Shown here piece by piece: positions 33,335 to 64,000 of a DNA stretch of 64,000 nt (within the stretch, counting starts at the first letter, position 1; each line of letters begins with the position of its first letter). A program made the translations under genes and the position numbers. The notes under the pieces were generated by a model. The model saw only the letters and a list, made by a program, of their open reading frames with translations. It was not told where the DNA came from and did no database searches. This DNA is from a virus. Location: positions 8,865 through 72,864 of the IMG/VR virus record IMGVR_UViG_3300020401_001540. One strand, 5' to 3'.

Positions 33335-36300
33335 TTTGGTAGCTCCACCTTTTCTGCCTTAAAGAAACGTGCTACCGAACTTTCCGAATCATTAAGCGAA
33401 ACTCCAGGATCTGCCCAAACTGTACCTTGTCTGCGTATAATTTGTACCTTAACACCACTTGCTGGTGTATTTAACAAAGTTACTGCCGGCGTATTACCTG
33501 TGACTGAGAATTCTGCAGGAGCAGTAATATCTGCTTCTGGACTATCTTGATCTTTTGTTGGATCAAATACCTGAATTTCTGTTTTTCTTAGACGTTTACC
33601 AGCAACAAAAACTTCAAATTCATTGACTGAATTAGGTGTAAATCCGAGATCAAATACCGAAGTTGAACCGTCACCTATTTGTGTATCGGTAATTGTTTGA
33701 TCTGCATATGGAGCAGTTTGTTGGATACCTTGGTTATATACATCACTTCCGGCAAAATGCACTTCTGGTGCACCTGTTCCAAACGTACCACGCTGTATTT
33801 GGCGTAAAGTGTTACCCTGTCTAATTAAGAATTCTATACGTTCTCCATTAATGAATATAATTCCTGGTACACTACTAGTTTTATCAGGAGAACTTATTGT
33901 GCTTGCATCATCTAATACAATTTCTTTGTCTGTTACAAGTAAATCTTGTGCAAGTTTGATTGGTGCTACATCACCTAAACGTTTATATATGTTTCTATTA
34001 AGAATATCTTTAAACTGACTAAATCCAAACTTAGGTTCTGTTGCTCCTGTTGCACTGAATTGTATTACTTCTATTACGTCATTATCATTTAATATTCCAT
34101 TATATTTTACAAATTTCTTATCATCAGTTAGTTTATAATCAACGCTTGGAGTTTTCAAAATACCATTTACTGTCAACCAAACAAATTGTGCATCTATTGC
34201 TGGGTTACGTAATTTAACTAATCCAGCCTTTAAATGATTGTATTGAATATGATCATCGGTTCCAACTGACAATGTTGATCTAGCAACGACATCAAAATTA
34301 ATTCTTTCAAAGTCTTGGAAATCATGTTTGTTAAATGTATATACTGTCAGCAATTCTCCTTCTGCCGGAGCAGTATTTAATTGTAATACATTACCACTAT
34401 CGACCCATGTGTTTTGATTGTTTATAACTTGTATACTACCAAATGCATAATCCCCATCTGTTCTAATATAAACTTCTAATTTATCTCCGTCTGTGCCTAT
34501 TCCAGGTTCTAATATTATAGAACTATTTGCAGGACGTATATTATATTCAGTTGCAATTTTTAATTCAGTACCATTTAACAATACTAACACGTCTGAGTTA
34601 TCAAAACTTCCTATAGGTCTTTGCCAAATTTCTAAAAAGTATTCACGCACACCATCTTCAACATTAAATTGTTGATTGTAACCAGGATTTAAAATTTTAT
34701 TTCCTTGTTTTACAATAACATTATGACTGTTTGGTTTTGCACTGTAAGGAGTTTTAGCAAGAGTAAAGTTTACTGTTGATCCATCACCAGTAAATTCTTG
34801 CGTTTCTAATTTACTGAAACTATCTATTTTACTGTAGATTGCAAAATTAATAACACTTTGATCAGGTGGTGGACTACCAAAGAATAGCACTGCCTTGGTA
34901 TCTTCAGATCCACTATCATCACTTGCAATTAAGACTGATTCTACCTGCTTGCCATTTACAGTTGCATAATAATCTAGATTAGCACTCCAGCGAGCCTTTG
35001 TAACATATTGAACTGAACAACCATCACCAATGAATTCATCAAACTCTACAATGTTATCACCGTTGCCGCTCACAGAAAGTATGTTTATAAAATCTCCTGC
35101 ACTAGGTGGTGTTCTAAATTTAACTTTTTTAAGTCTATAATCAACAATGTATGTATTTTGATTTTGTATTATTTCGTTTACCCTAACAATTAAACCATCT
35201 TTATTTTGCGGTTGTATTCCAAATCCAAATTCTACATTTACGCCGTCGGCATTATAAGAGTTACTTGACAATAGACTTCCACCTTTGCTTTGTCTATGGA
35301 AAACTCTTATATCTACAGTGTCTAAAATTTGTCCTGGAACTTGCTCTTCAGGTCCTTTAGATGTTGTAGGTGTTACAAATCCATCTCCGTCCACAATGAT
35401 CTCTTCTGGATTGATTCCTTTAGCAGTGAAGAATTGTAAATCTCCTCCACTTAATATTGTGTCATAAGATCTTGGATCAGGTAAAAATGCTCCATCTGAT
35501 GTTGTCTTTCTAAATACCACAACATCATTAGCAACAAATTTTTGTACATCATTTGTAATTTCTACTGTTGTTTGTCCTGCACCTACTATACTTTGTAATA
35601 CTGCATTGGCATTCGTTTGTGCATTTGTTCCAAAATTAGGATCATCAATTCTTGTTCCGTTCAGATATACATTGTACACAACACCATTTTCTAAAGGCTT
35701 TGATAAATTAAATATTTCTGTGCTACCATCCATTTGGAATATTTCATCATCAAATGTTGTATCAAAAGTATCATATGTAGTTGTAAACCATTCATCTGAA
35801 TCCCAACCAGTTCCTGACCCAAAGCTATAACTGCTTACTTCAACTCCTCCATAGTCTATGCCTTCTAAAATTTGTCCTAAATCATTTCCATACATTCCGG
35901 TTGCTGGATTATAATAAAGATTAATTCTATCTTGTGCTTGTAACAAGTCTGGTGCTTTATCGTATTCTATAATAACATTTTGACCTGTCCTTAAAGGAAG
36001 AGTAAAAGTTATTCTTCCATAATATCTTGTGTAACCTTTAGAAGTGTCTTTAATGTTTTCAAAAGTATATTCACTACGTAAACTATCAAGTCCGTCAACT
36101 GTAACTTTTATTCTTGTAGATTTAAGTTGAACAGGCCATTTTAAATTAAATATCTGTTGGTTAATAACACTTGTAAATGTTTGTGTTTCATTAAGTTTAC
36201 TAAACAGATATACTCCAGTAACTCTATCAAACTTGCATCTTACATGCATGCCTCTTGCTTTACCTTTACCTAACACAGGACTTAATCTAGCAGTAGTTCC

Positions 36301-39300: not shown

Positions 39301-42300
39301 AGGTTCAAGAATTTGACTATATTCATATTGATCTGCAACTTTTCTGTATACAACTATTTTGGTACTGGCGAGTGAACTATCTACTGCATCGCCTTCTGCA
39401 TATAATAATGTTCCATCAGTAGAATCAATTTGATATTGACTCGTATACATAGATGATGCAATTAAAACATCTGCAGATTTACTTACATCAAAGTTTTCTC
39501 CAAATGCTTCCAGTTTGTTTTGTTCTAAAACACTTTCACTTATACTAAAATTAGTATCATTAGGCACATATCCTAGCAAATCTAATCCGCTTGTTTTACG
39601 GGTCCATAAAGCTAAATTAAATGCTCCAGGAATAGTGTTAGTGTTTGCTTCATATATTTCATTGCCAAACCTTACTAGGTCTCCTTCAAAATAAGTTGCA
39701 GAAGATCTATGAAAGCCTTTGTATTTTCTTTCAATACCTAAAGACCAATCTTCAGTAGCATTTTTTTCTACAAAGTAAATTCGACCTTGATTGTGTTCTG
39801 TTCCATCACCTTTGGCATGTACAAAAAGTTTATATGTATCTGCGTCTATCTGTCTAAACTCAACTTTATTTCCTAACCTTCTTCCAGGTCGTGCATTAGG
39901 AACAGTGTAATAGTTAATTAATTGATAGGTTGCACCTCTTTTTTCATATATAGCAAATGTGCCTTGAGCATCCATATCACTTGCCGCAGTGTAACCGCTT
40001 GAGTTGAGAGGTATATTATAAACTCTAGTCCAGTCTAGATTTAATGCTCCTGGAGGATTTGCACTATCTGATATTCCTTGTATAGTGTTGCTAGAATAAA
40101 TCCAATATTCTGTATCTTGAATAAAGCTATTTCCTGTAGGAATTTCTATGTTTGATCCTTTGTCTACAACCAGCAATGGTCCTGATAAATTATTTTCAAC
40201 ATGTGTATTGTTAATCGGACCAACAGTTCTTACTGTTGAATCATTTTCGATAAATGTACAATTACTTGGTTCAGAAAAGTCGCTTCCCCTTGACCATGTT
40301 CCGTTTCTATTTTTAAGCCAAAATCTTGCTATTGCAAATGAACGTTGAATGTAAGCAACTTCAGCTGTGCTTCCTGTAGCAGTATCAGTTACTATATCTC
40401 CTATGTTAGGTAAGAAGGGATCACCATTCAAATCAAAATTTGTAAGTCGTACGTCAACCCAACCATTCCAAATATCTGCAACAGTATGTTCAGTGTTGTT
40501 TACATAGGTATAATCCAAACCTATTGCTGAGGGATCTTGTCTTACTCCGCTTACATATATGTCGTTTATCCAGGTTCTAAATTTATCTCCAACTGTGAAA
40601 CTATTTCCGTGTGCTAATTCTGTTCTAATTACCCACCTTGAATCTAAGAGGTTTATTTCAGTTGCTCCTTGCTGGTGACTTAGAACAGCGTAATAACTTG
40701 CTCTAGTTGGATTGTTTATAATATCTTCGTTTTGTTTAGTATCAAGAATATTTGTAAAAGCAGGATCGTTTGTAGTATCGCCTTCGAGTGTAATATTTTG
40801 TACGACTAGATTTGGCTTTGTCTCTTGTAAATTTGTACTGTTAAATGATGTTCCAACATTTATGTACCACCAACCTGTATGATAGTTGTCAGCAATATGG
40901 TTCACTGCATTATAAGTTCCTATTGTAATATTATTTTGTAATATTGTTCCAGAAGTTTCTAGTTGACCATTTACATCATTTAGGTAAAGAATCAGCCTGT
41001 TATCATTATCAATGAATCTGTATTGTACTTTTGCTCTTGCTGTATCAGTAGTTATTTCGTCGCCAACATCAGGAGTTGCCAAAGCACTAACAATTTCAAC
41101 AACCATTTTAACTTTACCAACAATGATATGTTGTCCGTTAAAGAAGTTTGCATTTAAAACAGGATCTCCGTTGAAAGGCAATACTCCTCCTGCTGATGTT
41201 GTTGTAAACTGATTCCATTTCAGTGTAAGTTTATCACCTGGCTTGGTTCCTTCCCATTGTTCTTTTTCAGCTCTGATTAAAACGTGATCTGTTGCTTCTG
41301 TAGGCATACTATAGTTTCCACGCATCATGAATACTATTTCTGGATATTGTGATGTTTCTGCATTGTAATCGTCTGATATACTTTGTTGATTAGATGCATG
41401 ACTTTCAAAAGTCTGTATTGCATCTGCTGTTACATTTCTTTTTGCTCTCCAAAGTTGATCACTATATAAAACTATATCTCCTGAAGCGTATGCTTCTGTA
41501 TTGACATAGTCGCCTTTTAATTTTGATTTAGCATTTGATGCATTTGGTGACCCTATAGCAAGATATTTTCCATCAGGTGTGATAGACACACTTGTTCCAA
41601 ACCCACCATTACTATCATATAAGAAAGCCTGTTCGTCTATTTGTTGTAATAATCCTAATTCTGTATTATCACTAGGCCTCGTAAAGACATAAACACTTCC
41701 ATTTAAATCCTTAGGTGCTGTAATTGCTACAGTATTATTATCCTGACTTACACTTACGCTTGATCCAAAATCTTTTTGAGTGCTATCTAATAATCCTGCT
41801 GTTGTATTCAAAATATTAGGTTTAAGTTCATATACCTGTTTACTTTTTAAAACAATCCATTTTCCTGTGTCGTCATCATCTACCCATATAGTTTGGCCAG
41901 CCGCGGAACTTCCTGTTAATGAGAACGGAGTAATACCTCCGTCTTTTATGTTTTCATTTGCTTCAGTAAGATTTGAAACTCTTACTTTTTTATACTTGGT
42001 TAAGAATCCTTCACCTGTGTAATCTGCTGTTGAGTCTGATATGCTGTCTGTTGAATCTAGGGATAATACATTCAATTGTATTTTATTGACTGTGTAAAAT
42101 CCGTCAGTTTCATCGTTAACATCTTTGATTCCAATTACATCTCCTATTTCAAAATCAGGTTCGTTATTTAGAGTAAGTTGAAATACATCATTCTGGGTAC
42201 CGGTAACTGATTGTATTTTCAAATCGGTAGCCATGTATTTGTAAACTGCCCAATTTATTTGATCTTTTTCAAGTGCAGTCCAAATGTAAGATCCTGCTTG

Positions 42301-45300
42301 TAAAGTTGTAATATCTTGATCTTTAAGTTGTGAATAATTTAAAATACTTGTGTACACATCTGTTGGATTAACATATCCTGCTGATGGTACAAAAATATTA
42401 TCATCATTAAAATACTTTGTAGGTAAAGGCTTATGGTCATAATTTTTAGATTTGACGTAAACATTATTCCTGTCAATTTTATATACTAATGATGTGTCCT
42501 GTGGAGGTACTACATCAACTAGTTCAACTGTCTGCGGTTCTAATCTATACTTACTTTCATCCAATAAAACTTCAAAAGTATCAGTACCTTCAGTTGCACC
42601 GTAACGTCCTACCCTTACTGCCCATTCTTCAAAAAATTCTATGCTATCTTTATTGATGCTTCCTAATTTATCAAATAATTTTGTAAGAACATTTTTGGTA
42701 CCTTTGTCCTGAATCATACCTTGGAAAAATTTGTACTGACTAACATCATCTGGAATAATGTTTTCTAAATATTTTCTTTTTTGATATCCTATTAAATGCT
42801 GAGCAAGTTTTTGTTGTTCTATATCAAAGTTATCACTGTCTAAATCGTAAAAATCTTCGAATTGTTTTGCTTTGTAATCAAAATTAGGAAGAAGTTCTGA
42901 CTTAGGTTTTCCGTTTAATAGTACAAATGCCCTATCATTAAATACGCTAGAGCCTGCAATGTTTCTATTAGCGACATAAAAATACTGCTTATATTTTACT
43001 AAATCACCAATTTTATAATCTTGCCAAGCTGTCCATTCGTATACTGTTGCATCTGAGAAAATAAATCCAGGAACATTTAAGCCTCCATTCCAGCCATCAC
43101 TTTTATATCCTTTTACCTTGATTCTTTCTTGTCTATATCCTTGTGGTCTAGTATAAATTTTATCATTGAATACTGTTTGGTTATCAATAATAATTGCATG
43201 TTCAGTTTGTACTGTAGGAATTTTTAAATGATATATTCCTTCTTGAGTATTCTTAACATACATTCCAAAATCGTTTGTTGTATCTCTTTCTGTTGTTGCA
43301 AAATCTGCAAGTAATCTTTTACCGTCTGCTTTCAAAAGACTGTAGTCATAAAAATTATCATAGATATCATCAACCACTGCAAATGGATTTGTAAATGCAA
43401 TTTGTCTAGCACTAGGACTAATTGTTAATACAGCACCTTCGCCCCAATTCTGTGTAGTCCAAAACATAAACTCTTTACAACTTAATTTCCAGTTCTCAAT
43501 TTCTTGCAGTGTTTTATTATATGTGTCAAAAATAAATCCTGAACTTTGTAGGTATTCTTGATAACCGAGCAAGAAATCTACTACATCTTGTATCTCTGGA
43601 AATACTGTACCGTAGCTGACTTCAAAAATTTCGTTGTCAAAGTTAGTAGCAAATGTAGCATTGGCTCCACCTTCTGTTGGAAGGTCTGCCATTTGTTGAA
43701 AATTATCTGTATTAAAAGCATCACTACTAGTATGACCAATTTTCACTCTATAATATGTGCCTTTGAAGTCAACAACTTGTCCAGGTTCATACACTTTTCC
43801 TGTTGACCATGTTAAGAAGTTTTCACTTATACCACCAATGTTAACTACTTGATCAGTTGCTTTCTTTAGCACAGGATATGTTTTGAATGTTGGACTATCT
43901 TTGTCGTAACCTGATACTTTAAAACCTCTTGGTAATTTTTCTACAATGACACCACTATAAGAATATACATTAGTAGGAACACTTTTTGTTAAGACTATAT
44001 TGTAATTTTCTTCCGGAATAAAAATATTACCTTCATTTGTAGGTGTTCTACTATCAAGTATAAGTCTAAATTTATTTTTTTGTGTAAATCCACCAATCTT
44101 ACAACCTAACTTGTTTTCTATGCGTTTTAGTTTATTTGAATATTCGTTAAATCGTAACGTTTCATTTGCAGACAAATATCCTTGCATGTAGTTTACAAGG
44201 CCAGCTGTTAAAACTCTATTTTGATCGTTTGCACTATTAGGAAACTGTAGTGTTGACAATTCAATTCTTTTTGACGTATCAGTTCTTACTAATTGGTCTG
44301 CTTCATTTCTAGCAATTCTACTTCTGTCAAATGCAAGCCCAAAATACTGTGCAGGTTGTAGTAATGACCAAGCCTTTACTAGTGCAAACGGATAATGGGA
44401 ACTTCTTCTCCAAGCAGTTTCTACAGGTCCTTCATCACCAAATCTAAAATCTATTCCGTATGTGCTATCAACTCCTCCCTGTGCATAACCAATTTCTGCA
44501 GGACTCAACAGATCTCCATTTTTATCAACTGGAATATATTTTAAAATATCACTATTTTTAAATTTATTTCTGTAAACAATTTTTTTATTAGGCTCTCTAA
44601 CTATACCTTTGCTTAAATCTTGCCATAGTAAATTATTATTTCTTGTATAAGGTGCAGGACCGTACACATCGTCAAACCAGTCTGGCTTTAATTTATATCC
44701 TAATATTTCCCAAGGATGAGTGTGAGGTCTATCTGTGTTGAAAATATCTTTATAAATTGATCTCCAAAATCCTGGAAGTGGTTTATTGTATGGATTACCA
44801 AAGTAAGAATAATTATATGTAAAACTATTACCCCTAGTGAAAACTTTATTTGTAGAATAATCTGGAACTCCTACAGTTTCTAACCAAGCGTTAAATTCGG
44901 ATATAATTACCTTGCTAATATTTTTTCTAGTAAATCCAGTTGGTCTAAAATCAGTTTCAATAAAGTCTGCTAAATCTATTACGTTTTCATCATAAGATAT
45001 TTTTAAATTATTGTAAATTCTTTTTTCATATTCTAACAACAACTTATCTCTAAAATCACCAAAGCATCTCCATATAGATCCATCATGACCTTGAAGCACA
45101 GGTTTAGCAACCTCCCATTCAGGATATTCTATAGTGTCGCCAGTAGCATGACTCATGGAAGAATTTGGCATAAAGAAAATTCTGTTATGGCCATCAAACT
45201 TGTGCGTATGAGCAAGTCCTGTTCCGCCATTGTTTTTATCAAATGCCTGTGCTGAAGTTTCATCAGTAAACAATGGATAGAACCAACCTAGCTTGTTTTT

Positions 45301-48300
45301 ATATCCTTTGGTCGTTGTAGAATCAATACCGTAAATTTTATAAGGTCCTGTACTGTCTGGTATTGTTGAGATATAAGTGTCGTCTAAAAATATCTGTGGT
45401 TGGTACTTAGGATATAATCCTAATTTAGTTGGCGTAGGAGGTATCCAACAACCATCGGTAGTTTCGTATTCTACGATCTTGATTTTGTCGCCTGCTTTAA
45501 TATTTGTTGTTATAGTTACAAAGCCATCTGTGCTTAAAGTATAATCTTTGTCCTTTATCAATTGTTCAAGATTAAGATATATCAATACAGCGTTTTCATT
45601 TAGATTTGTAAAGGATACAGTTCTTGTAAGATTAAAAATTGTTTGACTTGTATCTTCTATTTCATATTCTTGAACTGTGTCTCCACCAAATGGAATCATG
45701 TCGCTAAAATAAAAAGGATCCTTTGTGCCTCTAGTCTTAGTAAGTTCTAATAAAATTTTATCTACATGCGTTTTATCATCTGATTCAAAACCTAGGTCAT
45801 TTGCTATTCTTAGAAATTCTCTTTTTTGTTTGATATATTCTCTACCAGAATATTCAATTGCCTTTATCATATTGTAATCTTTGCTTGTTAAATTAAACAA
45901 AGCAAGATTAATTGGTCCAGAATGTTGTACAAAACGCAATCCAAATTGTGATACCGGACCTAAGTCTCTTAAATTTCCAACTCCTGGAAAACTTCCTGTA
46001 AAATCATTTACATTATCAACTATACTGCTTACATGATCTAAAACCTCACCAAACGTAAAATCAACTACGTTTTCATTCATAGGATTTTTTTCGAAGTTAA
46101 TAGGAAACTTGTAATAGCCTCTATGATTTTTTGCAGTTGCAGATGTTGATTCTATAACTACTTTTTGATTTAACTGTAAATCAGTGTTGAACTTAATGTA
46201 TGCATAACCATTTTGTCTAAAAATAGTATAATCAGTTGTGTCATACATTCTTACATTATCAACATAAATTTTTACTTTCAAATCATTTAGATCGCCGCTT
46301 CGCAGATAACAATCTATAATAAAATTGTTCGTCCTTGGCCCTGACACATATTGCAACACAACTGGTTGCTCTGATAACATAGGAGCTTTTTTCCAACCCG
46401 ATACGCTAGAAAAAGTTGTTCTGGCTGTATATTTTCTAAGTAATGCTGTATCTGTTTTTACTGTTAAAACATCTGTCAATACATCGTATTGATATGTATC
46501 ATTCAGTAAATTAAAATCAAACGTGATATCACCACTGTTCTCAATCGTTCTATAAGATAAAGGAAAACCTAATTCAGTGTCGTTAGATCCGACACCAGTT
46601 TTATAAGAAAAAATCTTATTACCTGCAAAAGTACTTCCTTCTAAAGATGAAAGTGGTGTACCTGCATCATTATACAAGTCAAAAACAGGCGCTTGGTTAA
46701 TACCAGTTTTGTTTTGACCTTGCTTCCAACTAGTTCCGTCATAGTAAAAAATTGTTCCCCTAAAATTTGTACCTGCTTTTACCAACACAGTTTGATTTAA
46801 TAATGGTGTGGTATCTGTAGTTTCTTTGAGGGCAATTTGATTTGTACCATTTTGATTTATAAATGTTACCGTATAAATTTTTCCGTTTACAAGAGAGTCT
46901 GGGTCAGCAGTAAATAAAACACGCATACCTGTTACTAGTTCTGTGCCGTCAACAAAGTAACCAACTTGGCCTTCAATATCAGAGAACACATCTGTTGTCA
47001 CAGTATCTACAAGATCAACTGCTGTCTTTGCTTCTGTACCAAAGTTATACAGTTTTAATCCAGCTTCAAATTCAATAATAGGTCTTGTAGCTCTAAATTG
47101 TTGATCAATAGTTACCGCTGTGTTATTAATTGCACTAGTTGTTTCAATTACAGATTTATGAGTCCATAAGTTATATCTACTCCATTGGTTTCTATCTTTA
47201 GATCCCTTGTTAATGACTATATAATCTTTTTGGTTTGTGTATGATAATGCATCGTCAAATGGTAAAGCATCAAATGCTTGTCCATCAAATTGTGTTTTAA
47301 TATCACTTAGATAGCCTGCACTAACACTCAAATCACTTTCAGCTATTAGTTTTATACTATCTCCTACTCCTTCAACGTACCAAGTGCCTTCTCCATATTT
47401 AGAGGGAGATACATCTCCAAAAAATTCTAACTTCATTCCATTGGATAACTCGTATCCGTTTTGCATTTTGTAGGTTTTCTTACCTACAATATCTAAGTCT
47501 ACATCTAAAAAAGTGTTGTCTATTATGTTTTTAATGATTATTAATCCACTTGCTTCTATATCATTTCCATTAACATAATATAAAGTATCAGGAGCTTCTA
47601 AATCAATCTTCCAAGTAATCTTTCCATTTTCAATTTTTTGTTGGCTTACTCCTTCATTGTAAAGATTAGAATCATCGTCAACATTAATAGATGTCCTAAT
47701 GCTAAACGGCATGTCTGTAGCATTTATATCAAATGTATATGATTGTCCTTTGTATAATGTAAGTGTTGGATTGCTAACAATATTTTCCTCAGAGAAAGCG
47801 TAAGCGTCATTATCTACATTATTTTGTTTTGTAACCTTGAATGTGCTTTCTATATCTCTTGCTGTACCATAAACAGGAATGCTGTTAGGACCAGTAGGTA
47901 ACCAATAATACTCTCTAAAATTTGTAAACTTATCCCAATCAATGTGCGGTTCCCAAGCATAGTATTCTTGGCTATTTAAAAGACTATGATTGCTTGTATC
48001 TGCATTTCTAATTTTAGCACTGTTTACATAATCTCTATAATCTCTATATAATGTATTATTACCGAGATCGTCTGTAATTGTAGCTACAGGTTCTAATTGA
48101 TAATTTTCTCTATCATCGGATACATCAGACAGGTAATTGTCATCAGCCTTGAATGCTTTTGCATCACGTCTTCCTATAAAGCCGTCTACTTTCTCAATGA
48201 CACCTGGTTGCATCATTTGATCAAGTGTGCTACTTAGAAACTTTCTGTTTGCAGTGGTTCTAAAGTATCTAGGAAGTAAAGATGCTACTTCTCTTTTTTC

Positions 48301-48339
48301 ATCTTTTCCAGTCTGGATTGGTTTTTCGTCTTGCGCCAT
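33331..48339 (-). CDS. giant (5002 aa) baseplate wedge/structural protein, positional gp7 analogue
   Basis: Uninterrupted 15-kb ORF directly after gp6. Contains FG-GAP-like propeller repeats, CBM5/12-like repeats, GSGY repeats and GDGST repeats. Confidence 0.8.
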   Translation of the reverse strand: MAQDEKPIQTGKDEKREVASLLPRYFRTTANRKFLSSTLDQMMQPGVIEKVDGFIGRRDAKAFKADDNYLSDVSDDRENYQLEPVATITDDLGNNTLYRDYRDYVNSAKIRNADTSNHSLLNSQEYYAWEPHIDWDKFTNFREYYWLPTGPNSIPVYGTARDIESTFKVTKQNNVDNDAYAFSEENIVSNPTLTLYKGQSYTFDINATDMPFSIRTSINVDDDSNLYNEGVSQQKIENGKITWKIDLEAPDTLYYVNGNDIEASGLIIIKNIIDNTFLDVDLDIVGKKTYKMQNGYELSNGMKLEFFGDVSPSKYGEGTWYVEGVGDSIKLIAESDLSVSAGYLSDIKTQFDGQAFDALPFDDALSYTNQKDYIVINKGSKDRNQWSRYNLWTHKSVIETTSAINNTAVTIDQQFRATRPIIEFEAGLKLYNFGTEAKTAVDLVDTVTTDVFSDIEGQVGYFVDGTELVTGMRVLFTADPDSLVNGKIYTVTFINQNGTNQIALKETTDTTPLLNQTVLVKAGTNFRGTIFYYDGTSWKQGQNKTGINQAPVFDLYNDAGTPLSSLEGSTFAGNKIFSYKTGVGSNDTELGFPLSYRTIENSGDITFDFNLLNDTYQYDVLTDVLTVKTDTALLRKYTARTTFSSVSGWKKAPMLSEQPVVLQYVSGPRTNNFIIDCYLRSGDLNDLKVKIYVDNVRMYDTTDYTIFRQNGYAYIKFNTDLQLNQKVVIESTSATAKNHRGYYKFPINFEKNPMNENVVDFTFGEVLDHVSSIVDNVNDFTGSFPGVGNLRDLGPVSQFGLRFVQHSGPINLALFNLTSKDYNMIKAIEYSGREYIKQKREFLRIANDLGFESDDKTHVDKILLELTKTRGTKDPFYFSDMIPFGGDTVQEYEIEDTSQTIFNLTRTVSFTNLNENAVLIYLNLEQLIKDKDYTLSTDGFVTITTNIKAGDKIKIVEYETTDGCWIPPTPTKLGLYPKYQPQIFLDDTYISTIPDSTGPYKIYGIDSTTTKGYKNKLGWFYPLFTDETSAQAFDKNNGGTGLAHTHKFDGHNRIFFMPNSSMSHATGDTIEYPEWEVAKPVLQGHDGSIWRCFGDFRDKLLLEYEKRIYNNLKISYDENVIDLADFIETDFRPTGFTRKNISKVIISEFNAWLETVGVPDYSTNKVFTRGNSFTYNYSYFGNPYNKPLPGFWRSIYKDIFNTDRPHTHPWEILGYKLKPDWFDDVYGPAPYTRNNNLLWQDLSKGIVREPNKKIVYRNKFKNSDILKYIPVDKNGDLLSPAEIGYAQGGVDSTYGIDFRFGDEGPVETAWRRSSHYPFALVKAWSLLQPAQYFGLAFDRSRIARNEADQLVRTDTSKRIELSTLQFPNSANDQNRVLTAGLVNYMQGYLSANETLRFNEYSNKLKRIENKLGCKIGGFTQKNKFRLILDSRTPTNEGNIFIPEENYNIVLTKSVPTNVYSYSGVIVEKLPRGFKVSGYDKDSPTFKTYPVLKKATDQVVNIGGISENFLTWSTGKVYEPGQVVDFKGTYYRVKIGHTSSDAFNTDNFQQMADLPTEGGANATFATNFDNEIFEVSYGTVFPEIQDVVDFLLGYQEYLQSSGFIFDTYNKTLQEIENWKLSCKEFMFWTTQNWGEGAVLTISPSARQIAFTNPFAVVDDIYDNFYDYSLLKADGKRLLADFATTERDTTNDFGMYVKNTQEGIYHLKIPTVQTEHAIIIDNQTVFNDKIYTRPQGYRQERIKVKGYKSDGWNGGLNVPGFIFSDATVYEWTAWQDYKIGDLVKYKQYFYVANRNIAGSSVFNDRAFVLLNGKPKSELLPNFDYKAKQFEDFYDLDSDNFDIEQQKLAQHLIGYQKRKYLENIIPDDVSQYKFFQGMIQDKGTKNVLTKLFDKLGSINKDSIEFFEEWAVRVGRYGATEGTDTFEVLLDESKYRLEPQTVELVDVVPPQDTSLVYKIDRNNVYVKSKNYDHKPLPTKYFNDDNIFVPSAGYVNPTDVYTSILNYSQLKDQDITTLQAGSYIWTALEKDQINWAVYKYMATDLKIQSVTGTQNDVFQLTLNNEPDFEIGDVIGIKDVNDETDGFYTVNKIQLNVLSLDSTDSISDSTADYTGEGFLTKYKKVRVSNLTEANENIKDGGITPFSLTGSSAAGQTIWVDDDDTGKWIVLKSKQVYELKPNILNTTAGLLDSTQKDFGSSVSVSQDNNTVAITAPKDLNGSVYVFTRPSDNTELGLLQQIDEQAFLYDSNGGFGTSVSITPDGKYLAIGSPNASNAKSKLKGDYVNTEAYASGDIVLYSDQLWRAKRNVTADAIQTFESHASNQQSISDDYNAETSQYPEIVFMMRGNYSMPTEATDHVLIRAEKEQWEGTKPGDKLTLKWNQFTTTSAGGVLPFNGDPVLNANFFNGQHIIVGKVKMVVEIVSALATPDVGDEITTDTARAKVQYRFIDNDNRLILYLNDVNGQLETSGTILQNNITIGTYNAVNHIADNYHTGWWYINVGTSFNSTNLQETKPNLVVQNITLEGDTTNDPAFTNILDTKQNEDIINNPTRASYYAVLSHQQGATEINLLDSRWVIRTELAHGNSFTVGDKFRTWINDIYVSGVRQDPSAIGLDYTYVNNTEHTVADIWNGWVDVRLTNFDLNGDPFLPNIGDIVTDTATGSTAEVAYIQRSFAIARFWLKNRNGTWSRGSDFSEPSNCTFIENDSTVRTVGPINNTHVENNLSGPLLVVDKGSNIEIPTGNSFIQDTEYWIYSSNTIQGISDSANPPGALNLDWTRVYNIPLNSSGYTAASDMDAQGTFAIYEKRGATYQLINYYTVPNARPGRRLGNKVEFRQIDADTYKLFVHAKGDGTEHNQGRIYFVEKNATEDWSLGIERKYKGFHRSSATYFEGDLVRFGNEIYEANTNTIPGAFNLALWTRKTSGLDLLGYVPNDTNFSISESVLEQNKLEAFGENFDVSKSADVLIASSMYTSQYQIDSTDGTLLYAEGDAVDSSLASTKIVVYRKVADQYEYSQILEPFNQFEDYGRSIAISNDGKKIAVGAPFNSELVPNGGCVYIYVQNGTTFSYRQTIRPRDKQPNTRFGFKLDFDGNTLAITSRGGDLEKVTTFDQSSTQFDNASTEFKLIDNDSGLVSIYETINDTLLYAQDFAYNTDTQDFGNIMRVNDNHIYLGLPKQQVNLTNEIDRGLVAEYRKPQGMTNWTIARSPVDPVDTSKLKGVYLFDKTDNSLVTYLDYIDPLQGKISGIADQEIDFKVSYDPARYSVSTIDSVTAYPMDYTAEKWIGKIWWDIGSAKFINFHQGDVIESTQNFNKLFPGSVVDVYEWVETTLLPSEWDEQSGSEAGLTQGISGTTKYGDSAYSVRRRYDTATQTFTNYYYYWVRNKATLPSVDTRRTSAFDVAAAISDPASAGTRFVAPLGSNRFSLFNCEPFIKDKNVGISWNWWTIENQEQNTHNEYQIITDGLETSIPRADLEQKWYDSLVGFDKNDRPVPDINLPVRQKYGNLNEPRQSWFVNKTEARKQFVERINKTLKENLIVDDKDLTKLTRIDPLPTNAEGKFDTTSDSFAELNFVSVAKVRQASLTLEVENGNIINVIINDGGQGYINPPTYTISDAQGTGCELKFTLDANGAISDVEIVSAGQNYTNNVSILIRKFSVLVQNDETVGGKWAIFEWIGTEWQRTLTQAYDVNAYWKYIDWYATGFNQFTPISFQLSSSYELSGLGDNIGDVVKIDNVGTGGWLLLQKKDNQETDDYSINYNTIGRQNGTIEFLNSLYDVTNENIAYDGASFDKIFYDTEPVEEFRVLIDAIKNDIFIDELAGKWNELFFASIRYVFAEQPNVDWVFKTSFIKAKHNIGELKQKTNFQNDNLSSYENFVEEVKPYKTKIREYLSSYEKIDPSSTVMTDFDLPPVYNADAGKIIPQSVQVMENQIVSGTSEITKYPSKHWAENVGFELLELNIADAGSGYSIPPQIKISGGGGSGAEARAYIGTNGRVTTVEVTKSGSGYLSQPNVEIIGSLEEGGTTARLSPVLGKGKARGMHVRCKFDRVTGVYLFSKLNETQTFTSVINQQIFNLKWPVQLKSTRIKVTVDGLDSLRSEYTFENIKDTSKGYTRYYGRITFTLPLRTGQNVIIEYDKAPDLLQAQDRINLYYNPATGMYGNDLGQILEGIDYGGVEVSSYSFGSGTGWDSDEWFTTTYDTFDTTFDDEIFQMDGSTEIFNLSKPLENGVVYNVYLNGTRIDDPNFGTNAQTNANAVLQSIVGAGQTTVEITNDVQKFVANDVVVFRKTTSDGAFLPDPRSYDTILSGGDLQFFTAKGINPEEIIVDGDGFVTPTTSKGPEEQVPGQILDTVDIRVFHRQSKGGSLLSSNSYNADGVNVEFGFGIQPQNKDGLIVRVNEIIQNQNTYIVDYRLKKVKFRTPPSAGDFINILSVSGNGDNIVEFDEFIGDGCSVQYVTKARWSANLDYYATVNGKQVESVLIASDDSGSEDTKAVLFFGSPPPDQSVINFAIYSKIDSFSKLETQEFTGDGSTVNFTLAKTPYSAKPNSHNVIVKQGNKILNPGYNQQFNVEDGVREYFLEIWQRPIGSFDNSDVLVLLNGTELKIATEYNIRPANSSIILEPGIGTDGDKLEVYIRTDGDYAFGSIQVINNQNTWVDSGNVLQLNTAPAEGELLTVYTFNKHDFQDFERINFDVVARSTLSVGTDDHIQYNHLKAGLVKLRNPAIDAQFVWLTVNGILKTPSVDYKLTDDKKFVKYNGILNDNDVIEVIQFSATGATEPKFGFSQFKDILNRNIYKRLGDVAPIKLAQDLLVTDKEIVLDDASTISSPDKTSSVPGIIFINGERIEFLIRQGNTLRQIQRGTFGTGAPEVHFAGSDVYNQGIQQTAPYADQTITDTQIGDGSTSVFDLGFTPNSVNEFEVFVAGKRLRKTEIQVFDPTKDQDSPEADITAPAEFSVTGNTPAVTLLNTPASGVKVQIIRRQGTVWADPGVSLNDSESSVARFFKAEKVELPK

Positions 48340-59540: not shown

Positions 59541-60392
59541 ATGAACAAACGCATTAATTACTTAAACAACAAGGACATATTGGCAGAAATAGCAAGGTCC
59601 AAAAATACTTTCTGTAGTTATACAGACCCAGAGTATGCAAAATATGACATAATATTACCTAGTAAAGACAAAGTTAACATTAGAACTATAGCAGAAGCAA
59701 AAAGAAATAAGGCAAAGAGATTACAGCAAGAAGCATTTGAAGAAGCAAAAGCACAAAACAAAAGAGTAAAATTGGCAGAATTTGCCATAGATTACAAAAA
59801 GATTGACAAATATGACTTGATCTTTAGAATTATGACTTTTGATCATATACCTGAAGAACCAGGACGTAAGAAAAATCCTAAAACAGTTGCAGATACAAAA
59901 GTAAAATTAAATTTTCCTCCTTTTCAACATTATAAATTTAACGATAAGGATGAGCTCGTATGCATAGGCAAGAGCCATTGGGAAGGCGGAATGGAAAACG
60001 GTTATTTTAACAAAGGTCATGGTCAGGCAACAAATAAGTTAGCTATGATGTGGATGAAACTGTGTGATAGGTATGCTACTAGAGGCAATGTAAGGGGTTA
60101 TACCTATAATGACGAAATGCGAGGACAAGCAATTTTACAATTATCACAAATTGGATTGCAGTTTGACGAATCAAAATCAAATAATCCTTTTGCATATTAC
60201 ACCGCGGCTGTTACTAATTCATTTGTTAGAGTAATCAATATTGAAAAAAGAAACCAAAACATTAGAGATGATATACTAGAAATGAATAATATGAATCCTA
60301 GTTACACAAGACAAGCTCAAGGTGAATGGGAAAGATCAAAAGAAAGACACGGTGAAGTAACTACTCCAACCACTTCGTCCGAAAAGTCTTGA
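59541..60392 (+). CDS. gp55: late transcription sigma factor gp55-like
   Basis: NYLNNKDIL, RGYTYNDEM, QFDESKSNNPFAYYT and T4-like 55-47-46 synteny. Confidence 0.85.
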   Translation: MNKRINYLNNKDILAEIARSKNTFCSYTDPEYAKYDIILPSKDKVNIRTIAEAKRNKAKRLQQEAFEEAKAQNKRVKLAEFAIDYKKIDKYDLIFRIMTFDHIPEEPGRKKNPKTVADTKVKLNFPPFQHYKFNDKDELVCIGKSHWEGGMENGYFNKGHGQATNKLAMMWMKLCDRYATRGNVRGYTYNDEMRGQAILQLSQIGLQFDESKSNNPFAYYTAAVTNSFVRVINIEKRNQNIRDDILEMNNMNPSYTRQAQGEWERSKERHGEVTTPTTSSEKS

Positions 60393-60417
60393 CATTATAC
60401 AATTTTTAAGCTATAAT
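60389..60417 (+). promoter_or_regulatory. sigma70 consensus promoter for gp47/gp46
   Basis: TTGACA (60389-94), 17-nt spacer, TATAAT (60412-17). Confidence 0.85.
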
Positions 60418-60437
60418 GACAAAGGAAGGATTGCGAA

Positions 60438-61448
60438 GTGTTTAAAAAAGCGGCGGTATTTACGGACATCCATTTAGGTTTAAAGTCCAATAGTAAAATT
60501 CATTTGCAGGATTGTGAAGAATTTGTAGATTGGTTTATCCAAAAAGCAAAAGAAAACAACTGCGAAACTGGTATCTTTTGTGGCGATTGGCATCACAATA
60601 GAAACAGTATTAATGTTCAGACCCTTGACAGTACAACAAGATGTTTAGAAAAACTTGGAAAAGCATTTGATAAGTTTTATTTCTTTGCTGGTAACCATGA
60701 CTTATATTACAAAGATAAGCGAGACATTTATTCTCTTGAGTTTGGAAAACATATTCCAGGTATAACTTATATTGATGAAATAGTAGAAGAAGATAATGTT
60801 GCTCTAGTTCCTTGGTTAGTAGGCGATGAATGGAAAAAGATTTCTAAAATAAAAGCCAAGTATATGTTTGGACATTTTGAATTACCACACTTCTATATGA
60901 ATGCAATGGTAAAGATGCCAGAACACGGTGAACTAAGAGCTGAACATTTCAAACATCAAGATTATGTGTTCAGTGGACATTTTCATAAAAGGCAAGTTCA
61001 AGGAAAAATTCATTACATGGGTAATGCATTTCCGCACAACTATGCAGATGCATGGGATGATGAACGTGGCATGATGATACTTGATAAAGAAAATAACAAA
61101 GAACCAGAATATATCAACTGGGAAAATTGTCCTAAGTATCGTACAATAAAACTTTCTAAACTCTTAGATGAAAAAGACACACTGTTAAAAGATAAAATGT
61201 ATCTGAGAGTTACATTAGACTTGCCAATATCATACGAAGAAGCTAGTTTTATTAAAGAAACATTTGTAAACGACTATGACTGTAGAGAAATAACACTAAT
61301 TCCTAGCCAACAGGACGAAGAAATACACACTGACATTGATATAAGTCAGTTTGAAAGCGTTGATCAGATTGTCACGAAGGAGATTACTGCAATTGACACA
61401 GAACAATACGACAAGAACTTGCTGTTGAGGATTTATGACGAAATATGA
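60438..61448 (+). CDS. gp47: recombination endonuclease subunit (Mre11/SbcD-like)
   Basis: TDIHLG, GDWHH, GNHD, GHFE and SGHFH metallophosphoesterase motifs. Confidence 0.92.
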   Translation: MFKKAAVFTDIHLGLKSNSKIHLQDCEEFVDWFIQKAKENNCETGIFCGDWHHNRNSINVQTLDSTTRCLEKLGKAFDKFYFFAGNHDLYYKDKRDIYSLEFGKHIPGITYIDEIVEEDNVALVPWLVGDEWKKISKIKAKYMFGHFELPHFYMNAMVKMPEHGELRAEHFKHQDYVFSGHFHKRQVQGKIHYMGNAFPHNYADAWDDERGMMILDKENNKEPEYINWENCPKYRTIKLSKLLDEKDTLLKDKMYLRVTLDLPISYEEASFIKETFVNDYDCREITLIPSQQDEEIHTDIDISQFESVDQIVTKEITAIDTEQYDKNLLLRIYDEI

Positions 61449-63220
61449 TTAAGATAAAAAATTTAACAGTAAAAAACTTTATGAGTGTGGGTAATCAAAC
61501 CCAGGCTGTTGACTTTGACAAACAACAATTAACATTAGTGCTTGGTGAAAATCTTGACCAAGGTGGTGATGATATGGGGTCAAGAAACGGTACTGGTAAA
61601 ACCACAATAATAAACGCATTAAGTTACGCCTTATATGGTGTTGCTTTAACAAATATCAAAAGAAATAACTTAATTAACAAAACCAACAACAAAGGCATGT
61701 TGGTTACACTTACATTTGAAAAAGATAATGTAAATTATAAGGTAGAAAGAGGCAGAAGTCCTAATGTACTAAAGTTTTTTGTAAATGATGAAGAACAAGA
61801 ACTAATAGACGAAAGTCAAGGTGACAGTAGAAAAACACAAGAAACTATAAATGAACTACTTGGAATGAGTCATAACATGTTCAAGCACATTCTTGCATTG
61901 AACACTTATACAGAACCTTTCCTAAGCATGAAAGTAAACGATCAAAAAGATATCATTGAACAGTTACTTGGTATAACAATACTTTCAGAAAAAGCAGAAA
62001 AACTAAAAGAAAAAATACGTGAAACAAAAGATTCAATTACAGAAGAAAATGCAAAAATAAATGCACAACAACAAAGCAATGAAAGAATTACAGAAACTAT
62101 TGACAGTTTAAAACTAAAGCAAAGTGCATGGGAATCTACTAAGAAAACAAATATTGAAAAATTACAAAAGGGAATTGATGAGTTAGAACATCTTGATGTT
62201 GATTCTGAACTTGACAAGCATGAAAAACTACAAAACTGGGAAGAGTTAAACACAAAAATAAATAACCTTAAGAAAGAAACTTCCACACTCGAGTCTGCAT
62301 TACTAAGAGCAGATAAATCAGTAGATAAAGTAACAAAGGATATATCAGAACTTGACAACGCTGTTTGTTATGCTTGTGGTCAAGAGCTACAAGAAGATAA
62401 GGTCAAAGAAATTGAAGATAAAAAAGCCAAAGAGCTTGAAGATGCCCTGGCCTATCAAAAAGAAATAACAGACAAATTAAAAGTTGCAACAGATCAATTA
62501 AATGATATAGGCGATATAAATGGACGCCCTGATACCTTTTATGAAACTATAAAAGAAGTTTATGATCATAAACAAAATGTTGCACAGCTACAACAAGCAT
62601 TGCAAAATACAAATACTGAAACTGATCCTTATCAAGAACAGATTGACGATTTAACAAATACAGGAATTCAAGAAATTGATTGGTCAACAATCAATGCATT
62701 CAATGATCTAAAAGAACATCAAGAGTTCTTACTAAAACTGCTTACTAATAAAGACAGCTTTATTCGTAAGAAGATCATTGATCAAAACCTTTCATATCTG
62801 AACAACAGGCTTACACATTATCTTGACAAGCTAGGTCTGCCCCATCAAGTTGTGTTTATGAATGACCTAAGTGTTGAAATTACACAGCTTGGACAAGATC
62901 TTGACTTTGACAATCTTTCCAGAGGTGAGCGTAATAGACTGATATTAGGAATGAGCTTCGCATTTCGCGATGTTTGGGAGAGTTTATATCAGAATATTAA
63001 CTTACTGTTCATTGACGAGCTTGTTGATTCAGGTATGGATACCAGTGGTGTTGAAAATTCGTTGGCCATATTGAAGAAAATGGGTCGTGAACGTGAAAAG
63101 AATGTTTATCTTATATCACACAAAGACGAACTTGTTGGAAGAGTAACACACGTATTAAAGGTATTGAAGGAAAACGGATTCACATCATATGAAAATGATG
63201 TGGAAATACATAATGAATGA
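61445..63220 (+). CDS. gp46: recombination ATPase subunit (Rad50/SbcC-like)
   Basis: KNFMSVG, NGTGKTT Walker A, coiled coil with CYAC zinc hook, LSRGE signature and FIDE Walker B. Confidence 0.93.
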   Translation: MIKIKNLTVKNFMSVGNQTQAVDFDKQQLTLVLGENLDQGGDDMGSRNGTGKTTIINALSYALYGVALTNIKRNNLINKTNNKGMLVTLTFEKDNVNYKVERGRSPNVLKFFVNDEEQELIDESQGDSRKTQETINELLGMSHNMFKHILALNTYTEPFLSMKVNDQKDIIEQLLGITILSEKAEKLKEKIRETKDSITEENAKINAQQQSNERITETIDSLKLKQSAWESTKKTNIEKLQKGIDELEHLDVDSELDKHEKLQNWEELNTKINNLKKETSTLESALLRADKSVDKVTKDISELDNAVCYACGQELQEDKVKEIEDKKAKELEDALAYQKEITDKLKVATDQLNDIGDINGRPDTFYETIKEVYDHKQNVAQLQQALQNTNTETDPYQEQIDDLTNTGIQEIDWSTINAFNDLKEHQEFLLKLLTNKDSFIRKKIIDQNLSYLNNRLTHYLDKLGLPHQVVFMNDLSVEITQLGQDLDFDNLSRGERNRLILGMSFAFRDVWESLYQNINLLFIDELVDSGMDTSGVENSLAILKKMGREREKNVYLISHKDELVGRVTHVLKVLKENGFTSYENDVEIHNE

Positions 63221-63413
63221 CGATACACATGATAAATTAACCAAGGCATATATGGCATACTTCAAGGCTAACGAAAACTTTGAGGCAAGAAACTCCGTAC
63301 GAACTCACAGAGAAAGCCGTAAATGGCTTAGAGAGATTAGATCACTAGCAAAAGAACGTATGGACGAGATACATCACAAGCATAATTCCAAGAAAGAGGC
63401 ACCAGAAGAATAG
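63213..63413 (+). CDS. small basic helical protein (possibly Hc1-like DNA-binding)
   Basis: Likely start MNDD at 63213. Contains the ANENFE..RESRKWLREIRSLAKER pattern. Confidence 0.45.
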   Translation: MNDDTHDKLTKAYMAYFKANENFEARNSVRTHRESRKWLREIRSLAKERMDEIHHKHNSKKEAPEE

Positions 63414-63420
63414 GCTAGGG

Positions 63421-63426
63421 TAAGTA
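63421..63426 (+). promoter_or_regulatory. late promoter variant TAAGTA, 5 nt before ATG
   Basis: Reads TAAGTA-TCCAT-ATG. Confidence 0.45.
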
Positions 63427-63431
63427 TCCAT

Positions 63432-63854
63432 ATGCTATGGACTTATCAGGGTGAAAATATAGACGAACTACCAGAGGATTGCGAAGGATTCGTATATCTA
63501 ATAACCAATAAGACCAATAATAAAAAGTATATAGGCAAGAAACTAGCCAAATTTAAGAAAACACGCCCACCACTCAAAGGCAAAAAAAACAAAAGAAGAA
63601 GCAAAATAGAAAGCGATTGGCGAGATTACTGGGGTTCCTCAGATCATTTGCTCGCTGATGTTGAACAACTAGGATCAGAAAACTTTACAAGAGAGATTTT
63701 GTATCTATGTCAAAGCAGAGGCGCTATGAGCTATTTAGAGGCAAAGGAACAGTTTGACCGCAGAGTGCTAGAAACAGACGAATACTACAACGGAATTATA
63801 AATGTGCGGGTAGGCGGTTCAAAGATTCTAAGAGAACAACTCAAAAAATTATAG
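63432..63854 (+). CDS. stand-alone GIY-YIG endonuclease (Seg-like catalytic domain only)
   Basis: GFVYLITN...KYIGKK, YWGSS, FTREIL, conserved E and YYN. 140 aa with no appended NUMOD/HTH domain. Confidence 0.85.
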   Translation: MLWTYQGENIDELPEDCEGFVYLITNKTNNKKYIGKKLAKFKKTRPPLKGKKNKRRSKIESDWRDYWGSSDHLLADVEQLGSENFTREILYLCQSRGAMSYLEAKEQFDRRVLETDEYYNGIINVRVGGSKILREQLKKL

Positions 63855-64000
63855 GCAATATACGGACAGTGTTTGATCGGGGTAGCTCGATCCGCTTTGA
63901 GGACATGGATACCCATGTTCGGAATCTAGCGAGTCCAATAATCTGTTGCTCCTAAAAACCCCTTGCAAAGGAACGAAGCGGGGGATAGCGAGAGATCCGC
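63855..64000 (+). ncRNA. candidate structured non-coding RNA (5' part, truncated by the window)
   Basis: About 51% GC by manual count against an AT-rich background. Hairpins at 63875-63892, 63901-63920 and 63961-63971, and a long-range helix 63893-98/63975-80 with G-U pairs. Confidence 0.45.

Follow-up and report, generated by a model that had tools for sequence, protein, structure and literature searches.

A large conserved RNA behind a GIY-YIG nuclease gene in uncultured aquatic T4-like phages

Does the DNA that follows a stand-alone GIY-YIG nuclease gene in an uncultured virus encode an RNA, and is such an RNA a partner of the nuclease or a gene in its own right? The question is raised by a stretch of 64,000 nt (the window) from IMG/VR record IMGVR_UViG_3300020401_001540, positions 8,865 to 72,864. 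Its last gene encodes the nuclease, and behind the stop codon the GC content rises to about 51%, as had been noted from the letters alone (0.507 in the 146 nt from 63855 to 64000, against 0.340 in the whole window). The original prediction proposed a co-transcribed nuclease-RNA unit, possibly an RNA-guided nuclease, with a large phage non-coding RNA among its alternatives. The latter is the better description. With moderate confidence, we read the tail of the window as the beginning of an autonomous gene for a structured RNA, carried by uncultured aquatic T4-like myophages, and the nuclease as a free-standing homing-type neighbour rather than its protein partner. The last base of the window is also the last base of the contig, and the RNA is thus present only as approximately its first third.

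A homologous RNA lies directly after the GIY-YIG stop codon in relatives, and the tail of the window aligns there in many loci. In a protein-guided scan of IMG/VR, at least 595 stretches encode relatives of the nuclease, and the best 80 were taken as loci (L numbers). The conserved element is about 325 nt long (L061 3424-3750), and parts of it are found in 48 loci. In the subtype of the window the full RNA measures about 330-360 nt, and other subtypes reach about 480 nt. By itself, thermodynamic stability of the fold is a weak argument for an RNA (single-sequence fold z-score -1.91 on the plus strand and -0.14 on the minus strand, 10 of 200 shuffles being as stable on the plus strand); it is the relatives that establish it. 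In alignment A1, which consists of the window and 21 type A relatives with a hand-drawn structure (the subtype names A-G are labels of this study), 87.1% of cells are paired and 16 pairs change on both sides, and none of 500 shuffles scores as high. A covariance model, R1, was built from A1. It has 56 matches in 75 sources, all on the strand of the nuclease, with type C loci at 41-50 bits, and no match in loci without gp46 context. In A2, a model-fitted alignment of 45 distinct rows, 92.1% of cells are paired, both sides change in 25 of 27 pairs, and the covariation score is 0.327 against 0.137 for shuffled alignments (0/500 as high). When partners are slid by 1-3 columns as a control, pairing falls to 32-48%. 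A model-fitted alignment is biased towards its own structure; the unfitted A1 agrees with it. The conserved helices include G-U pairs, and compensatory changes together with G-U pairs fit a plus-strand RNA only, which is the strand that the original prediction had chosen and that the fold z-scores favour. About 100 positions are invariant, although the gp46 proteins of these phages are only 58-60% identical to that of the window.

The part of the RNA that lies in the window begins with a three-way junction formed by helices H0 to H3 (Table 1). In A2, H0 is paired in 100% of cells and all four of its pairs change on both sides (GC, CG, UA, AU). H1 is likewise paired in 100% of cells, with both-side changes in 5/7 pairs, and H2 in 92% of cells with changes in 4/4 pairs, being represented by CACC/GGTG or CTCCA/TGGAG in relatives. 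All seven pairs tested in H3 change on both sides, and its pairing amounts to only 74% of cells because loop lengths differ. H5 is paired in 95% of cells, with both-side changes in 5/5 pairs, one of which goes from C-G to U-A in 13 of 36 cells; its loop with GGAACGAAGC is invariant in 22 and in 56 sequences (two alignments). H6 is a stem of 0 to about 80 nt in relatives, and its base covaries. Two of the hairpins read earlier from the window by itself, H1 and H3, are therefore real, since they covary, while a third (CCTT-GCA-AAGG) is displaced by the better supported H5, and an enclosing CGCTTT/GAAGCG helix gives way to H2. The word GATCCGC does occur twice, at 63889 and 63994. The second copy opens a sub-hairpin of H6, and because it belongs to that sub-hairpin the repeat is incidental.

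Contigs from a marine DNA run break at 63849-63979, between co-occurring strains, and their loose ends match other H6 variants. Many IMG/VR contigs likewise stop 50-300 nt past the nuclease gene. Strain-level variation of H6 fragments assemblies, which probably explains the contig end in the window.

Beyond the contig end, the structure was followed in A3, an alignment of 56 distinct sequences of types A and B. Here 95.5% of cells are paired in seven helices, and none of 500 shuffles matches either the cells or the score. H5 and the base of H6 show many both-side changes. The candidate pairings GUAGGU/ACCUAC, UGGG/CCCA, GGAACC/GGUUCC and GGUCAGA/UCUGACU never break, their positions being invariant or changing on one side; that of GGUCAGA with UCUGACU is a proposed second, loop-to-tail pairing. 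RUCUYG pairs with YRAGAU, where one pair is C-G in 25, U-A in 8 and unpaired in 18 of 54 cells, and this better supported helix displaces a small CCGA/UCGG hairpin after ACCUAC. GUCGA/UCGGC and GUCGACG/CGUC-U-GAC pairings were also considered, in sequence that is invariant. The 7-10 nt immediately ahead of the A-run in front of H5 form a long-range helix with a segment just after UGGG...CCCA. Its strands are lineage-specific yet complementary (UUGCUCCA/UGGAGCAA, UAUGCUAC/GUAGCAUA, UUGUACA/UGUACAG, UUACACA/UGUGUAG, ACCGUG/CACGGU), and in the close relatives L004, L005, L023 and L128, TTGCTCC(A) faces (T)GGAGCAA. The mean best run of this helix is 6.75, compared with 5.66 +/- 0.15 for permuted partners (69 sequences; 200 permutations, maximum 6.04). 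The RNA core is pseudoknotted, because the long-range helix crosses GUAGGU/ACCUAC.

The RNA is modular, with an exchangeable 5' domain (here the H0-H3 three-way junction) and a nearly invariant core. Types A and B have a common 3' core and different 5' domains, types C and D have another common core, and E, F and G are further variants; core sequence thus differs between subtypes. The 3' part contains two homologous modules of about 30 nt, which constitute an internal duplication. Their alignment scores 8 in the consensus of types A/B (-6.9 +/- 3.1 shuffled) and 9 in the consensus of types C/D (-5.4 +/- 3.2 shuffled), with 0/2000 shuffles as high in either case. Each module ends in the same tail of 6-10 nt (ACAUGAAG in the subtype of the window), and the two tails lie 50-67 nt apart in every subtype. 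In 135 of 136 distinct RNAs, the two tails show no more than one mismatch over 8 nt. Where a lineage has another tail, the change is found in both copies (ACAUGA, ACAUAA, ACGUGA, GUAUGA, GCAUGA, AGAUAA), and the variant AUCAUCAAGU of L120 is also present twice. The tails thus co-vary as direct repeats and not as complements, an unusual and testable design. Readings of the tails as RNase P-like, C/D-box/K-turn, T-loop, anticodon-loop, start-codon or stop-codon elements are broken by ACAUAA, AGAUAA and AUCAUCAAG of L120, and so is pairing of tail with tail via CAUG, by the same natural variants.

On the 3' side of the RNA follow a small hairpin, a conserved GA-hairpin (GUUUGAGCG-NN-AGCGAAAAC) and then a terminator-like hairpin. 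The GA-hairpin, which has tandem G-A/A-G pairs, is seen at L061 3815-3860 and at equivalent sites in most loci, and GAGCG...AGCGA is changed to GAGUG...AACGA in some of them.

Rfam scans of the other subtypes found one family only, RF01718 (Polynucleobacter-1), which corresponds to the 5' domain of type F. The matches score 59.4 (L024), 107.8 (L058) and 62.2 bits (L072), against a gathering score of 37, and the window itself has no RF01718 match in 63000-64000 at E values up to 10. Members of this type occupy the same genomic slot as the window RNA and carry the same duplicated tails. A profile of the type A/B 3' module (nhmmer) finds L072 (E 0.004) and L024 (E 0.02) at the expected site, and does not find L058. 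Polynucleobacter-1 thus resembles the window RNA in its place after the GIY-YIG gene, in a related 3' module and in its tails. It differs in that the window 5' domain has another fold (H0-H3) and that RF01718 spans only 141 nt. RF01718 is therefore one 5' module of a larger RNA, and the window RNA is a sibling of that RNA. Weinberg et al. 2010 (PMC2864571) list the motif in a table for Burkholderiales and for fresh water/estuary, with neither phages nor a function named. Its position here suggests that the motif is phage-borne. An orphan motif of 16 years' standing thus gains a genomic home, as the 5' part of a longer RNA that phages encode downstream of gp46 and a nuclease gene.

Other comparisons with known RNAs were negative. 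ARAGORN finds no tRNA or tmRNA in 60000-64000 of the window or in 10 full loci, in line with the earlier remark that the tail does not look like a tRNA. Rfam has no family for window positions 63000-64000 at E values up to 10, and with permissive thresholds Rfam 15 returns only noise for the window and the type A loci (CRISPR-DR, small nucleolar RNA and TD-1, all far below gathering scores). A blastn search with the window tail and full type A and C RNAs against 50,697 GenBank phage records gave no real match, the sole hit being one of 24 nt (E 6) that is due to chance. In the literature searched, no RNA was described that follows gp46 and a GIY-YIG gene. A term search finds no GIY-YIG in the main text of Fremin et al. 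2023 (PMC10690425), and its supplements, with about 10,000 candidates, may list the RNA. The RNA is widespread, large and strongly constrained, and by the blastn result it is absent from cultured phages. We rate it as a large orphan phage RNA and not as a new kind of system, with one sibling 5' module in Rfam since 2010.

The nuclease next to the RNA consists of a SegE-type GIY-YIG domain (PF19835, E 4e-36, residues 3-123), and it matches phrog_447 over the full 148-position profile (E 4e-39). Nothing beyond the catalytic domain is present, as the original prediction had it. Residues Y22, Y33, G35, R55, E88, E103 and N120 are invariant among 8 homologues, down to 42% identity, and the domain thus has the conserved Tyr, Tyr, Arg, Glu and Asn of Seg-type nucleases. 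We take these invariant residues to have the catalytic roles usually assigned to them. A search of PDB sequences with the nuclease gave no match at E values up to 1. The basic insert that had been singled out in the original prediction is indeed present. It is not special to this protein, since cyanophage homologues of 42-52% identity have a slightly shorter one with an invariant Arg, and judging from these homologues it is a feature of the whole protein family.

Linkage of the nuclease and the RNA is very tight when viewed from the RNA. Scans of IMG/VR for three RNA motifs gave at least 120 stretches for each of two motifs, and 67 for the remaining one. Among the matches listed, GIY-YIG is just upstream in 74/75 testable loci for the core of types A/B (5 too short) and in 74/74 for types C/D (6 too short); for the Polynucleobacter-1 type it is so placed in 57 of 64 testable loci, with 3 too short. 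There are also RNAs without this neighbour. L120 has a complete RNA near an HNH open reading frame (ORF) and a terminase-like ORF, and no GIY-YIG. In L337 and L365 the RNA stands before a phosphoesterase-like ORF, preceded in L337 by a promoter-like TTGACA-17-TATAAT, and in L369 it follows a cold-shock-like ORF (all of these ORFs were named by eye). L337, L365 and L369 have no gp46/gp47 context and no nuclease ORF adjoining the RNA. In L329, a PD-(D/E)XK nuclease of family PF24608 (173 amino acids, aa; E 2.5e-29) replaces GIY-YIG between orf74 and the RNA.

At the slot that holds the nuclease in L329, three further loci (L331, L389 and L392) show a 718-nt gap.

Viewed from the nuclease, 69 of the 80 loci have at least 330 nt downstream and are thus testable for the RNA: 57 fit the subtype patterns, 6 are variants recognised by eye and 6 have no RNA. 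The six without RNA are those outside the gp46 context, while gp46 and/or orf74 is directly upstream of the nuclease in 74 of the 80 loci. Nuclease homologues of 75-79% identity without the RNA are found in phage Melnitz and six IMG/VR loci. The phrog_447 family (about 148 aa) occurs in 781 GenBank phage records, and the two cyanophage homologues that were inspected leave no room for an RNA.

The histories of the nuclease and its flanks also differ. In the tree of gp46, L004 and L005 join the window first, and L061, L060 and L074 next (Shimodaira-Hasegawa-like approximate likelihood ratio test, SH-aLRT, 98). In the GIY-YIG tree, L061, L060 and L074 belong to a clade of 25 rows, with a support of 95, from which the window is absent; its nearest sequences after L004 and L005 are nucleases from phages with the deepest-branching gp46. 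The 5' type of the RNA switches between close kin, L060 having type A and L074 type B. Changes of RNA type number 10 on the GIY-YIG tree and 8 on the gp46 tree, against a shuffled mean of about 26.5; types are clustered on both trees, and the counts do not discriminate between them. The trees are quick ones with one kind of support value. Two further properties of Seg-type genes are thus seen here, a history decoupled from the flanks (GIY-YIG against gp46 trees) and a slot common to other nucleases (PF24608 in L329). The RNA gene is the constant element, the nuclease gene is replaceable and recombining, and genetic exchange has a boundary in this region.

The RNA starts close to the nuclease gene. 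In the window the R1 match begins 8 nt past the stop codon; it overlaps the end of the ORF in L026, L038 and L049, and in most loci starts between -15 and +13 nt relative to the end of the stop codon. Because of this closeness there is no room for a promoter between nuclease and RNA, and in L061 no promoter-like site was found on the plus strand between the nuclease ORF and the RNA. The RNA is thus almost certainly co-transcribed with the nuclease gene, as originally predicted, and we infer co-transcription with the operon in most phages. In L061 a terminator-like hairpin lies at 3755-3776, and the next gene is convergent, on the opposite strand. L121 and L133 carry TTGACA-17-TATACT, a near-consensus site of the sigma-70 type, within the first 60 nt after the GIY-YIG stop codon. 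By its sequence, this promoter-like site suggests independent transcription of the RNA in some phages.

These observations are best accommodated by an RNA gene that stands on its own and a nuclease that has settled next to it. On the plus strand, the RNA is the last element of a gp55-gp47-gp46-orf74-nuclease block. The GIY-YIG gene would occupy a slot beside a very conserved RNA gene, as does SegB of T4 among tRNA genes, which it also cuts, and the invariant DNA of the RNA gene would offer the nuclease a cleavage site in rival genomes as well as homology for repair. SegB is encoded by a GIY-YIG gene in a tRNA cluster, recognises a conserved motif of tRNA genes and spreads itself along with tRNA genes (PMC2330249); it is often associated with tRNAs and amplifies anti-defence loci (PMC13096335). 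The two cases are alike in that a GIY-YIG gene of a T4-like phage lies beside conserved structured-RNA genes, with conflict in gene flow around nucleases of the window type. They differ in that a DNA-binding part has been recognised in SegB and its 27-bp site mapped (PMC2330249, PMC13096335), whereas the window nuclease is a bare catalytic domain found in nearly every genome, and its RNA is not a tRNA. The neighbourhood would extend the theme of SegB and tRNA genes to aquatic T4-like phages. A tentative guess as to the RNA itself is that it works in trans. Folded into a particle, it would offer its two identical single-stranded tails to a partner present in two copies, which could be a dimeric protein or a nucleic-acid site that is repeated. 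By analogy with phage tRNA genes an anti-defence role is possible, as is a catalytic one.

Several points weigh against an autonomous RNA gene with a homing-type neighbour. Pfam detects no second domain and no separate DNA-binding domain in the 140-aa nuclease, so that it may be asked how the protein alone would find a site. The nuclease is near-universal beside the RNA and intact in all loci examined, which is unusual for a selfish homing gene; such linkage and intactness would also fit a functional pairing, and two unlike nucleases before one RNA could mean that any nuclease will serve together with this RNA. The role given to the tails is a guess. No third strand complementary to them was found by eye in any subtype. 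Covariation offers no proof of the loop-to-tail pairing or of helices Pb, H8 and H11, whose positions are either invariant or vary on a single side. The contigs from RNA libraries do not establish transcription: they cover 63319-63841 (with 23 differences from the window) and one of 446 nt touches 63954-63991, and among the contigs of three RNA runs none covers 63866-63947. Such contigs give no levels or ends, and RNA libraries can hold DNA.

Among the other explanations, a bolder one concerns the duplication, and we regard it as doubtful. The RNA would belong to a class of its own, that of large pseudo-symmetric RNAs with a catalytic or scaffold function, with Polynucleobacter-1 as one interchangeable 5' module. 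Its identical, lineage-specific tails would program the recognition of a repeated target, either alone (for example as an anti-defence decoy or a ribozyme with two equivalent sites) or for whichever small nuclease, GIY-YIG or PD-(D/E)XK, lies in front of it.

Less likely than that, in our view, is a cis-acting 3' untranslated element that stabilises, processes or terminates the gp47-gp46-nuclease transcript, or tunes the expression of a potentially toxic nuclease. Its place at the operon's 3' end, right at the stop codon and with terminator-like hairpins after it, would suit such an element, and the convergent gene in L061 leaves nothing downstream to regulate. However, a pseudoknotted core of 330-480 nt with about 100 invariant bases exceeds what a terminator or stabiliser needs, and the RNA is also found behind unrelated genes or with a promoter-like site of its own (L121, L133, L337, L365, L369).

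A ribozyme is unlikely to a similar degree, and would be compatible with an autonomous RNA gene. The pseudoknotted core would cleave or ligate, and the tails would be two equivalent sites, for example for release of a fragment of about 58 nt. Junctions and loops that are extremely conserved across phages with such diverged gp46 proteins, the pseudoknot topology and the spacing of 50-67 nt between the direct-repeat tails in every subtype are as expected of a catalyst. Against this, no Rfam 15 ribozyme family matches, no internal guide complementary to the tails is apparent by eye, and the core sequence varies between subtypes.

A nuclease-RNA particle, in which the RNA scaffolds or guides GIY-YIG (or PD-(D/E)XK) and the tails serve as short guides, loosely like OMEGA or bridge RNAs, now appears quite unlikely. 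It would account for the very tight linkage and the shared transcript, for a nuclease without a DNA-binding module, for RNA starts that overlap the end of the ORF in some loci, and for tails that are variable between lineages yet identical within one RNA. However, the two components are found apart: the RNA in L337, L365 and L369 without an adjoining nuclease ORF and in L120 without GIY-YIG, and GIY-YIG homologues of 75% identity in RNA-less contexts. The inspected members of the large phrog_447 family have no room for such an RNA either. A PD-(D/E)XK enzyme can take the place of GIY-YIG, the GIY-YIG tree is decoupled from the flanks, and the 5' type of the RNA switches independently. The tails, of only 6-10 nt, are the only lineage-variable single-stranded pieces seen; no long variable guide, of about 15 nt or more at one end of a constant scaffold, was found, and the region after the second tail forms hairpins. 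The tempting claim of a new RNA-guided nuclease, with which the original prediction had begun, was removed as unsupported.

Very improbable, finally, is that the tail is no RNA at all and is instead the end of a minus-strand protein gene or a DNA signal (an origin, a packaging site or iterons, which the direct repeats could represent). A 49-aa minus-strand frame is open through the tail to the end of the window, and in 65 of 73 relatives the longest open frame in the RNA is on the minus strand (median 76 aa). However, the frame does not stay open in 7 of 22 close relatives, and the minus-strand products have no Pfam family. Codon periodicity is missing from the RNA, where column entropy by phase is 0.76/0.78/0.65, and present in the nuclease ORF of these loci, with 0.40/0.26/0.92. 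Spacers of 2/3/4 and of 5-8 nt between invariant blocks vary by 1-2 nt and break any frame, and the compensatory changes with G-U pairs fit only a plus-strand RNA. The minus-strand frame is an artefact of composition; A+T-rich stop codons would probably be fewer by chance in an island of 51% GC.

Three known arrangements may be compared with the locus. HEARO/OMEGA RNAs are structured RNAs of a few hundred nt that belong to IscB and TnpB. The likeness is an RNA of this size adjoining or overlapping a small nuclease ORF; the locus differs in its GIY-YIG fold (not RuvC/HNH), in having no Rfam HEARO match and no transposon ends, and in that RNA and nuclease are found apart. GOLLD and ROOL are large, ornate, orphan phage-associated RNAs. 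The window RNA is likewise a large and strongly conserved phage non-coding RNA. There is no match to them by sequence or model, and it is smaller, has a two-fold duplication with identical tails, and in most loci keeps a fixed position after gp46 and the nuclease. Group I introns can encode a GIY-YIG ORF, as in T4 td with I-TevI, and here also a GIY-YIG ORF is followed by a pseudoknotted conserved RNA core. A group I intron was rejected because Rfam gives no match (window, 10 type A loci, L061 at E values up to 10 and 7 loci of other types), no host gene is interrupted (only 18 nt lie between orf74 and the start of the nuclease gene, with no exon downstream on the plus strand), and the order of helices, mapped by hand, does not fit P3-P9.

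Table 1. Positions of the genes, the RNA and its helices in the window, and of related features in other loci.
Feature	Position	Strand	Basis or remark
gp55-like late sigma factor	59541..60392	+	opens plus-strand block; phrog_12791, E 7e-78
gp47-like Mre11/SbcD-type phosphoesterase	60438..61448	+	PF00149, E 4e-6; syntenic in relatives
gp46-like Rad50/SbcC-type ATPase	61445..63220	+	phrog_77, E 3e-102; PF13476
orf74, small basic ORF, 74 aa	63189..63413	+	ORF list; kept between gp46 and nuclease in most relatives
GIY-YIG nuclease gene, 140 aa, catalytic domain only	63432..63854	+	PF19835; phrog_447
Structured RNA, 5' domain, ended by contig end	63862..64000	+	covariance model R1, 140 bits (window in seed)
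Helix H0, GGAC with GTCC	63864-63867 with 63933-63936	+	closes three-way junction
Hairpin H1, GATCGGG-GTAG-CTCGATC	63875..63892	+	strands 63875-63881 / 63886-63892
Helix H2, CGCT with AGCG	63893-63896 with 63928-63931	+	encloses H3
Hairpin H3, GGACATGG-ATAC-CCATGTTC	63901..63920	+	strands 63901-63908 / 63913-63920; sequence and loop length variable
Pseudoknot 5' strand, TTGCTCC	63946..63952	+	partner beyond contig end
Helix H5, CCCCT with GGGGG	63959-63963 with 63980-63984	+	loop contains GGAACGAAGC (63970-63979)
Start of variable-length stem H6	63987..64000	+	interrupted by contig end
RNA of L120	~6650-7030 (orientation of this report)	reverse strand of locus	
PD-(D/E)XK nuclease of L329	3963-4484		PF24608; between orf74 and RNA, replacing GIY-YIG
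RF01718 matches	L024 3492-3636, L058 1465-1611, L072 3096-3242		13-66 nt after nuclease stop codon

Elsewhere in the window there are baseplate and tail genes of the T4 type, as well as a block of genes for radical-SAM enzymes and sugar modification, and from its T4-type gene content the source genome is therefore a T4-like myophage. The tail had been described as the longest non-coding stretch of the window, which is incorrect, as non-coding gaps of 168 and 232 nt exist elsewhere (ATG-started ORFs of at least 70 aa). The product of orf74 has no Pfam or PHROG family match. Its homologues are conserved in position and very variable in sequence (33-97% identity), and it is possibly a nucleic-acid-binding protein.

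In a collection of bacterial genomes there are three matches (L325, L326 and L327), all on contigs of metagenome-assembled genomes (MAGs; Neomarinimicrobiota and Crocinitomicaceae) and in the order gp47-gp46-orf74-nuclease-RNA; these are probably mis-binned phage DNA. L326 (335 kb) and L327 (153 kb) are from the same MAG and, together with a completeness estimate of 15% for the 72.9-kb contig of the window, suggest that the genome may measure several hundred kb.

Among the tail and baseplate genes of the window, one open frame (33331-48339, minus strand) extends over 5002 aa. Positions 1472-27266 (minus strand) hold a long run of radical-SAM, carbamoyltransferase, aminotransferase and tryptophan-halogenase-like genes, with many ORFs that belong to no family, and this run is possibly a glycan or secondary-metabolite cluster in a phage.

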